Position numbers and translations under genes: made by a program
The notes under the pieces: generated by a model
Told to the model about the DNA's origin: nothing
Seen by the model: the letters and a program-made list of their open reading frames with translations, nothing else
Databases searched by the model: none
DNA from: a virus
Taxonomy: Monodnaviria; Loebvirae; Hofneiviricota; Faserviricetes; Tubulavirales
IMG/VR virus record: IMGVR_UViG_2574180160_000002
Length of the DNA stretch: 7,629 nucleotides
Direction: 5' to 3' (one strand)
Shown: piece after piece, positions 5,629 through 7,629 of the stretch
How the letters are laid out: each line of letters begins with the position of its first letter
Numbering within the stretch: the first letter of the stretch is position 1

Positions 5629-7629
5629 TCAGGGACAGTTATTGTCACAAGTCCAAGGGTCGGCTTCGCCGCCCCCACCCGCCGCGCGGGAGCGCGTCGT
5701 GCGGTGTCGTGAAGCCGACGAAATAAACACAGATTCATAGCTGCTGCCGCTTCTGACTTCCTCTGCGCGGATTTTTTCTGCGGGGGTCATACGGCGGACA
5801 ACGCAGCCCATAAAACGGGTTATGACCGGAACGGGGCCAAACATGAAACCGGAAATCACCGGTGAGCAGGGTTCACCGTAACGGTTAATACGGGGCTTAC
5901 CACCTTCCTGCGGCTGAACGTAAAACGGACGAAGCAGACGTTCAGAACAGAAGAAACCGCCGTTCAGCAGGATATAGGTCCGGAAATCGCCTGCATCACA
6001 GGCCATGCGGATGGCTTCCAGTTCGGCGACCTGCTGCGGCGTGAACTGCTGCATATTGATATGATGCGCCTCAAGCGGTGCGCGGAAGCTGCGCATCTGG
6101 CGGTAAGCCGTAACGGAGGGAACGCCAAAGAACTGGAACAGGCGAAGGCGCGTTGCTTTCTGCCAGCAGGCGGCACGGCTGACGGCATCACAGAATGAAC
6201 GGGCAGAATAACGGTCATTCAGGGCGGTAATACCATCCGCACTGACATCACCCGCCATTTTGGTGATGTACTTCACGATGTAACGGAAACCATCACCCTT
6301 TTCAGGGTCAATAGCCTCAATACGAATTCGGTGCTCTTTCGCCCCCTTTTCATCCGGCTCATCGCGCATGGCCTCTTCACGGAAAATGGCCAGCACCGTT
6401 GCGCTCTCATGGGGATTGCAGTAAATCAGGAAATTCCAGTGCGTTGTACCGTCAGCATGAGGCTCGACCGTGCGCAGACCGGGTATCTGAATACCGGCTT
6501 TATCCAGTCTGCGGCAGACCCGACGCCAGACGGTATTCAGCCAGGCGTGCGAATCCTTAACGGTCGGGCAACCTGCTTCCCACCATTTTTTATTCGGACG
6601 AGAATGCCATTTTCCGGCAACCTTAAAACTGGTCGTCGGGTGAAAACGTGACGGCGTGGTGAGCACGATGAAGTAGCCGGACAGCCCCATATCTTCGGAC
6701 AGTTCACAGACGGCCTTTCCACGAACGCAGAGTTCAGCAATCCGGTTTTTCGGATTCGAAACAGAGGCGTTATGCGCATCTTCCAGCGTACAGACCAGCT
6801 CATTAAACGCATCAAAGACACCGGAGGACCGGAGATACTTTTTCACGCGTTTACTGCGGACAGCAAACAGGTCACGATGCCAGTCAGAAATATAAGGCGC
6901 GTTGCGGTTCAGTATGCCGAGCATGCGACAGACCTCATTAACCCGCTGGTCACGGATAACCCGCAGGAAACGGGTGACAAAAGCCAAATCAGTCAGACGC
7001 TTAAGCAATCCCTCATCGCCGTAACGCTCATGATAAGTGGCATAAACGGGGGCGAAATCAAAGCCGGAGATGGCCTGAAAATAGGCCATCACATTGAGAA
7101 GGTGATGCTCTGGTACATCACTATAAATGGCCCGAGAAACAAGGCAGTCACGAACAACCGAATCAGCCACCTCAGCAATCTGCTCATCAGTGCAGAAAAG
7201 CGAGAATTCATAAGGGTCTCCGTCCTGATTGAAGAAAGCAAAACGGTGCGCGGACTCAAGCGCCATCAGCGCATTTTTCACACCGAGCTGGTAAACCAGA
7301 CGGCAGAAAGCATGCGCCACGGTGAACGAAAACGAGCCAAACTGTGATACCAGTCCGGCAGCCCTGCCCCTGTCAGCGAGTGAAAAATCCGTGCAGTTAA
7401 TTCCGTAAATCACACGGTCAACCTGCGTGTTACGCGGCAATGCGAGCTGTGCAGATAAGGTCCCGACTTCATCACGATACTGGCGGGAAAGCGTGGCAAG
7501 GTTGCGGGTGGCAACATCGCGCTCAGTCCGAAAATGCTCGCGTTCGGGCAGCGTCAGGCAGGGACGACCAAGGGCAACGGATGCCGCGTCGATGGCGTTA
7601 TACGCTGTAAGGATGGCTGATTCAGTCAC
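5629..7629 (-). CDS. Rolling-circle replication initiator (phiX174 gpA / P2 gpA-like), probably 5'-truncated by the window edge
   Basis: Open frame reaches the window end (first in-window codon GTG at 7627-7629); stop TGA at 5629-5631. Contains [10 protein letters not shown], with Tyr codons at 6280-6282 and 6268-6270 four residues apart followed by Lys, the catalytic motif of phiX174/P2-type initiators. First gene of the block, as rep (gII) is in inoviruses, but it does not resemble M13 gII as I recall it. Confidence 0.8.

Follow-up and report, generated by a model that had tools for sequence, protein, structure and literature searches.

The 7,629-nucleotide (nt) stretch of DNA examined here, hereafter the window, comes from a virus of the Tubulavirales (IMG/VR record IMGVR_UViG_2574180160_000002) and carries all its long open reading frames (ORFs) on the minus strand and in inovirus order. 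The first gene in this order, rep (7629 to 5629), codes for a predicted rolling-circle initiator (Rep) of the two-tyrosine HUH type, assigned to the Phage_GPA family and, within it, to the P2 gpA branch by Pfam, PHROG, BLASTP and AlphaFold. The last codons of the same gene contain a candidate plus-strand nick site, preceded by a long hairpin. This initiator and the DNA site on which it would act are the subject of the present analysis.

The initiator and the candidate origin at the 3' end of its gene

The rep ORF (5629–7629, minus strand; 2001 nt) starts with GTG and specifies 666 amino acids (aa); identical coordinates are annotated at NCBI in Escherichia coli chromosomes, under the label 'replication endonuclease'. 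In a related genome (L001, 9515-9613), the frame stays open for 33 codons further upstream, to a TTG, beyond the window end at 7629. Since the N-termini of all homologues line up with the GTG start, the 666 aa are most likely the complete protein, and the length of 'more than 666 aa' given in an earlier note on this DNA is probably an overestimate.

In the Pfam profile search, Rep matched PF05840 (Phage_GPA) with 167.3 bits (E 5.9e-49, residues 206–457), the curated gathering threshold of this family being 31.4 bits. The same profile recovered the controls P2 gpA (413 bits), phiX174 gpA (210 bits, E 6e-62) and orf698 of the Vibrio phage VFJ (364 bits, E 5.5e-109). Moreover, Rep matched PHROG 91 'nicking at origin of replication' (E 5e-129), and BLASTP aligned it with P2 gpA at 28% identity over 419 aa (E 8e-37). 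The likeness to both P2 and phiX174 proposed in the earlier note thus stands for P2 also in direct alignment, whereas for phiX174 it holds at the profile level only, the pairwise match being marginal (E 0.067) and limited to the surroundings of motif 3 (see below). The AlphaFold model of Rep had a predicted local distance difference test score (pLDDT) of 89 and a predicted template modeling score (pTM) of 0.86; structure searches with it returned only weak matches to HUH nucleases (adeno-associated virus Rep, parvovirus NS1). The Rep sequence had no match among PDB chains at E ≤ 1, and NCBIfam offered no family for it. Phage_GPA has been placed among the HUH endonucleases, for which a two-tyrosine mechanism is described (PMC5714925). 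Overall, the sequence comparisons support the assignment of Rep to the rolling-circle initiators of the Phage_GPA family, on the P2 gpA branch, and not to the M13 type. The classification itself is not new: it is already public in the NCBI annotation, and a Rep of this kind is also found in the Vibrio phages fs2 and VFJ, so that the finding overturns nothing.

Three motifs are collinear with those of P2 gpA. Motif 1 (FIVLTTPS, residues 320–327; 6649–6672, minus strand) aligns with P2 FITLTAPS and lies upstream of the metal motif; its T324, P326 and S327 do not vary among 36 sequences. Motif 2, the predicted metal-binding motif (residues 389–403; 6421–6465, minus strand), aligns with P2 EPHHDGTPHWHMMLF and contains the string EPH391-A-D393-G-T-T-H397-W-N399, of which H391, D393 and H397 are conserved. 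The histidine cluster pointed out in the earlier note, which begins at residue 391, corresponds in position to the HUH-type metal motif, albeit in the form H-W-N instead of H-W-H: the second histidine of H-U-H is replaced by Asn399 (codon 6433–6435), which may serve as a metal ligand. Coupled changes nearby include the loss of the proline before the motif and the replacement of EPHH by EPHA.

Motif 3 (YIVKYITK, residues 450–457; 6259–6282, minus strand) aligns with P2 YIAKYISK and holds the candidate catalytic residues Y450 (codon 6280-6282) and Y454 (codon 6268-6270), within the string RYIVKYITK that begins at residue 449. The multiple alignment shows Y450, K453, Y454 and K457 to be shared without change by P2 gpA, HP1 Rep, VFJ orf698 and phiX174 gpA, where the tyrosines correspond to Y343/Y347; across the 36 sequences, Y450, Y454 and K457 are unchanged. 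Both tyrosines lie on one predicted helix (residues 448–459) of the AlphaFold model. The alignment thereby bears out the proposed match of the two tyrosines, spaced i and i+4, to the catalytic Y-x-x-K-Y motif of phiX174 and P2 gpA.

Codons 658–665, the last of rep, read CCTTGGACTTGTGACAATAACTGT (24 nt; 5635–5658, minus strand, read from 5658 to 5635), a sequence homologous to the annotated nick site of the P2 origin. In the P2 record (GenBank AF063097), the 'nick site at ori' is set at position 29892, which lies within gene A and is the leading G of the GG in GCGCCTCGGAGTCCTGTCAATAACTGT; the P2 counterpart of the whole window motif, CCTCGGAGTCCTGTCAATAACTGT, contains this position. One paper describes P2 position 29892 as the origin determined by experiment and remarks that P2-like phages have kept the site (PMC8537503). 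The base homologous to it is window position 5654, and the motif is identical to that of HP1 at 22 of 24 positions and to that of P2 at 19 of 24. A sequence like the P2 nick site, which the earlier note had proposed to look for inside rep, is present there once.

The motif is conserved far beyond the similarity of the proteins, recurring with 0–4 mismatches in inovirus relatives whose Reps are only 28–45% identical. A degenerate pattern made from it matched the window once, with no match in any of 200 shuffled sequences, and the motif is the longest exact word common to the whole window and several distant loci. In each locus whose rep is of the P2 gpA branch, a phage unit carries exactly one motif, without exception on the rep-sense strand; phiX174 alone lacks a match to the P2-type pattern. 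When viral contigs were scanned for the motif first, 120 contigs were retrieved, 114 of which had a GPA-type rep on the same strand ending 58–1017 nt upstream; in the remaining six contigs, it lies within about 310 nt of a contig end, so that all evaluable contigs (114/114) fit. Zot/pI genes identify 31 of the 120 as inoviruses. Searching the literature for the nick sequence brought up no relevant paper. Most likely, CCTTGGACTTGTGACAATAACTGT is a candidate plus-strand nick site of the P2 type.

Immediately before the motif, the viral (gene-sense) strand can form a 61-nt G+C-rich imperfect hairpin (5659–5719, minus strand, read from 5719 to 5659; codons 637–657), the 3' arm of which abuts the motif. 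A 141-nt segment at this place folds with −32.4 kcal/mol (z −5.05), and none of 200 shuffled sequences was as stable. A hairpin occupies this position in eight diverged inovirus relatives as well; their stems are unrelated in sequence, and the 3' arm abuts the motif (or, in one case, ends a few bases before it). Short hairpins occur at this place in P2, HP1 and one more relative. In the window, hairpin and motif are translated together as Rep residues 637–666, and the AlphaFold model is disordered from residue 630 to 666 (pLDDT below 50).

Other relatives have the motif 1, 14, 177 or 344 nt past the rep stop, and it is intergenic in the loci L026, L027, L028 and L031. Consequently, the suggestion that the plus-strand origin may lie inside rep is right in a narrow sense: hairpin and motif do fall within its codons, but the ORF overruns an origin that sister lineages keep between rep and the next gene. 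Relatives of the Providencia/Xenorhabdus type have an extra small ORF (57–111 aa) between the rep stop and the hairpin with its motif (L028 3569-3742; L030 2476-2685; L031 2581-2916), which has no equivalent in the window.

Prophage setting and the gap between genes I and IV

Directly 3' of the candidate origin, in the position of gene V, lies a 141-aa ORF (5173–5598, minus strand) that belongs to a PHROG of no assigned function (PHROG 30648, E 1.6e-95) and has only a sub-threshold match to Pfam G5P (E 0.075). Its position suggests a single-stranded DNA-binding protein; the product is 141 aa long compared to 87 aa in M13. It is followed by small ORFs and by major-coat-like, pIII-like and pVI-like genes, in that order, up to gene I for a Zot-like assembly ATPase (1657–2868, minus strand; Pfam Zot; PHROG 1675; 31% identity to M13 pI, E 1e-34). 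The pIII-like gene (window ~3650-4010) encodes a long repetitive Gly/Ser linker built of GGSSGSGGSGSGS units, and because of these repeats the other frames and the opposite strand contain long spurious ORFs. A gap of 447 nt separates Zot/pI from the gene IV secretin (1–1209, minus strand; Pfam Secretin; PHROG 1012, E 7e-115; 26% identity to M13 pIV, E 5e-20). Judged by the ORF map, the Pfam matches to Zot and Secretin, the PHROGs for M13 I, IV and VI-like proteins and the comparisons with M13, the collinear module of the Inoviridae type is present in the window.

Prophages in E. coli chromosomes match the window at 95–98% identity. They are tandem copies of about 8.7 kb each, with hipA on one side and a singly mismatched dif site on the other. 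The window spans exactly the distance from the pIV stop to the rep start, which leaves about 0.7 kb of each phage unit outside; this gene IV–rep region contains a small divergent ORF, dif-like sites, hairpins and repeats. By a blastn search for distant matches, rep is present in 48 of 5426 complete E. coli genomes, exclusively on chromosomes, in a median of two and a maximum of 11 copies. We take rep to belong to a temperate filamentous phage of E. coli that inserts at dif, in most cases as tandem copies. A megablast of the whole window against deposited phages gave no match. Identity with CUS-1/YpfPhi was considered; rep occurs in only the 48 genomes and there is no K1 strain among the matches listed, and the prophage is probably different, another filamentous prophage using the same dif region.

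Three features of the flanking sequence in L001 may be added, all outside the window. Two of them involve dif (9515-10249 and 1430-1457). The leftmost gene IV is adjoined by the dif site with one mismatch; at the junction of tandem copies, two inverted dif-like half sites surround a terminator-like hairpin, an arrangement that recalls the folded single-strand attP of CTXphi. Finally, TTGCACAATTGCAC-like words, probably repressor operators, are repeated between rep and the divergent ORF of 62 aa (~9515-9660).

The I–IV gap (1210–1656) consists of two copies of a 57-nt element flanking about 280 nt of other sequence. Copy A (1587–1643, minus strand, read from 1643 to 1587) is a hairpin resembling ssiA, the primosome assembly site of ColE1, and copy B (1248–1304, minus strand, read from 1304 to 1248) is a direct repeat of it, 339 nt apart. 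The element is 92–96% identical to a segment of small ColE1-type plasmids located about 290 nt beyond rop. Its pattern matched the window twice, and none of 200 shuffled sequences contained two matches. Both copies are on the gene-sense strand, which is presumably the one packaged as a single strand in the virion. In ColE1 plasmids, the PriA primosome assembly site ssiA is situated just downstream of ori (PMC3167613).

The length of the gap varies with the number of elements, near-identical prophages having one copy in a gap of about 110 nt, two in 447 nt, or three in 759 nt. The basal gap has about 110 nt with one copy, and 1–3 copies are found in those loci of the E. coli clade in which the gap is covered (Rep identity of at least 62%); more distant relatives are without the 57-nt element. 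The copy spacing of 312–339 nt looks like the tandem amplification of a unit. Folding of the whole gap (1210–1656) was no more stable than that of shuffled sequences (z −0.49), and single copies folded no better than shuffled sequence, so that the evidence for a hairpin comes from homology and from covariation: the inner stem is preserved by double changes in two variants, and three pairs of the consensus hairpin show compensatory change. An Rfam search of the window and two plasmids found no family, and hence no RNAI by which to locate the plasmid ori. The phage element resembles ColE1/pMB1 ssiA (n'-pas) in sequence, in its hairpin and in its location on the strand that becomes single-stranded; unlike ssiA, it varies between one and three copies among near-identical prophages. 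The two ssiA-like hairpins thus lend some support to the view of the earlier note that the gap could be a minus-strand origin, and there is moderate support, at the level of sequence, for a candidate origin of this kind.

Proposed replication scheme and alternative explanations

The observations are explained, in our view with good confidence, by an initiator of the GPA family and P2 branch, a nick motif with its hairpin at the 3' end of rep, and a rolling-circle scheme of the following kind. Rep would bind the region of hairpin and motif on the supercoiled replicative form and cut one strand, the viral (gene-sense) one, inside CCTTG/GAC at about window position 5654, with the metal held by H391, H397 and N399. 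It would stay joined to the 5' phosphate via Y450 or Y454 while the 3'-OH is extended by the host polymerase. Once a round has been completed, the regenerated site would be cut by the second tyrosine, and the first would transfer the displaced strand into a circle, as in the flip-flop of phiX174 and P2. In a tandem prophage, replication could start at the site in one copy and stop at that of the next copy, which would yield a unit-length single strand without excision. The complementary strand may begin at the ColE1 ssiA-like hairpins of the I–IV gap, via the host PriA primosome. The nick position, the covalent tyrosine link, the flip-flop and the tandem release are what we infer for the predicted Rep and its predicted site.

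Several points weigh against this explanation. The exact phosphodiester that would be cut has been extrapolated from a GenBank feature of P2 that covers a single base. The motif of inoviruses is always 22–49 nt before the next gene, and it may have a second role in expression. The region of about 0.7 kb between gene IV and rep, outside the window, could hold further origin elements. With asparagine in place of the second HUH histidine, the metal site is unlike that of characterized members. Lastly, the plasmid segment related to the gap elements is a putative ssiA, equated with it by its position near rop and by the map of the pBR322 factor Y site.

Two of these points would also suit a plus-strand origin lying elsewhere, for example in the non-coding gene IV–rep region as in Ff phages, with the motif a relic or a signal for expression of the downstream gene: the region upstream of rep has the hairpins and repeats mentioned above, and the distance from motif to next gene is regular. 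Such an arrangement is improbable, because the motif corresponds to the nick site annotated in P2 and stays nearly invariant across Reps of 28% identity, and because it tracks GPA-type rep genes in every evaluable contig, including P2-like ones without a gene start after the motif. Moreover, the phage unit has no second copy of it.

Another possibility is that the degenerate H-W-N motif has impaired Rep catalytically and that the prophage is a defective remnant, as the asparagine at the place of a metal-binding histidine could indicate. We regard this as quite unlikely. H-W-N is present in 16 of 16 Reps of the clade (40–100% identical, from E. coli, Salmonella, Morganella, Providencia and Xenorhabdus), whereas the 20 more distant members of the family all read H-W-H or H-H-H; fixation over such a range argues against decay. 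The other catalytic residues are intact, the Rep cluster at 90% identity contains 2063 member sequences, gene sets are full, and tandem arrays reach 11 copies.

It is less likely still that the motif has been conserved as a needed C-terminal peptide of Rep, PWTCDNNC, and not as a DNA site. Indeed, the motif is translated in one frame in the window, its closest relatives, P2 and HP1, with PWTCVSNC among the products. In the Salmonella relatives and VFJ, in contrast, it is read in another frame with a stop codon within the motif, in the four loci named above it is not translated with rep at all, and the tail that it encodes in the window is disordered in the model. These differences in reading frame, together with the shuffled controls, the shared exact word and the motif-first scan, mark the motif as a DNA element and not as a protein constraint.

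Virtually nothing speaks for an initiator of the Ff gII or CTXphi RstA type beyond a single GenBank record that labels a matching ORF 'RstA-like', since Rep matched neither Phage_CRI nor G2P_X_C in the Pfam search and had no BLASTP similarity to M13 gII (best E 0.54), while both M13 gII and the Rep of the gut Inovirus D_HF5_61 matched these two families, M13 gII without a match to Phage_GPA. The outcome that the earlier note had named as refuting its assignment, best matches to the Ff gII family, was not seen. In the record concerned (DQ288668.1, 1685-3037), the ORF labelled CTXphi RS2 'RstA-like protein' matches the GPA-type Rep with 30% identity (E 9e-52), a result one would not expect of RstA; the record may represent a different element or be mislabelled.

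Comparison with known phages and significance

P2 is the first phage to compare: its gpA, like HP1 Rep and 186 A, shares with the window Rep the Pfam family, the collinear motifs, the aligned tyrosine pair and an ori (a candidate one in the window) inside the initiator gene. In both, the homologous nick-site sequence is on the coding strand, past the part of the gene for the catalytic domain, and has a hairpin before it. The differences concern both the phage and the layout: P2 is a 33-kb tailed double-stranded DNA phage, compared to a single-stranded DNA filamentous phage of 7–9 kb here; Rep is about 100 aa shorter at its C-terminus; the nick site, at the very end of the ORF here, is about 430 nt before it in P2; the hairpin has 61 nt as opposed to about 13 nt; and the metal motif is H-W-N and not H-W-H.

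Among inoviruses, Vibrio fs2 and VFJ (genus Saetivirus; orf716 and orf698) have a GPA-type Rep with 30% identity over 85% of the query, the same gene order, a pI that is 32.5% identical, and a nick motif at the rep stop after a long hairpin with a 27-bp stem. They differ in host and integration behavior, and in VFJ the metal motif is H-N-H and the nick motif is in another frame with a stop inside. The VFJ paper is silent on the Rep family and the origin (PMC3731265). With phiX174 gpA, the window Rep shares the Pfam family, tyrosines at i and i+4 on a helix, and an origin inside the initiator gene, in spite of the marginal pairwise similarity and a genome that lacks the P2-type nick motif. The Ff phages (M13/f1/fd) likewise nick the viral strand of the replicative form and proceed by rolling circle, with the order V-VII-IX-VIII-III-VI-I-IV and homologous pI and pIV; their initiator is of an unrelated family, and their origin is intergenic, after gene IV, as opposed to the candidate between rep and gene V here.

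These comparisons bear on the idea of the earlier note that the genome is a mosaic, with a P2-like initiator joined to an Ff-like morphogenesis module. Homology of pI and pIV to the M13 proteins is real, but at 31% and 26% identity the likeness was overstated, and pI is equally close to that of fs2 and VFJ, which carry the same Rep type, as to that of M13. The nearest deposited relatives of pIV (44% identity) belong to gut inoviruses with an Ff-type Rep, which points to module exchange among inoviruses as real and general, in agreement with the literature (PMC3731265). Mosaicism is therefore a property of inoviruses at large, and the window genome is not special in this respect.

What the analysis adds is modest: the position and layout of the nick site, its conservation at the level of DNA, the variable hairpin, the H-U-N variant and the plasmid-like hairpins. 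A wider interpretation, which we offer tentatively and hold to be somewhat doubtful, is that a variable hairpin followed by an invariant 24-nt P2-type motif constitutes one cis-acting origin design common to tailed P2-like phages and a broad filamentous lineage (Enterobacterales, Vibrio and others). To this design, the enterobacterial inovirus clade would have added an origin absorbed into rep as a disordered tail, the change from H-U-H to H-U-N, and a PriA-type minus origin captured from ColE1 plasmids, a mixed phage–plasmid module that has not been described as such.

For the filamentous prophages of E. coli, Salmonella, Providencia and Xenorhabdus, whose replication is unstudied, the region 5635–5719 provides a precise candidate plus-strand origin. 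The fixed H-U-N variant is a naturally occurring test case for the way in which HUH nucleases coordinate their metal. The P2 nick-site sequence being common to tailed double-stranded and filamentous single-stranded DNA phages aids the annotation of inovirus origins, and a nick site shared across virus realms helps to trace the movement of replication modules.

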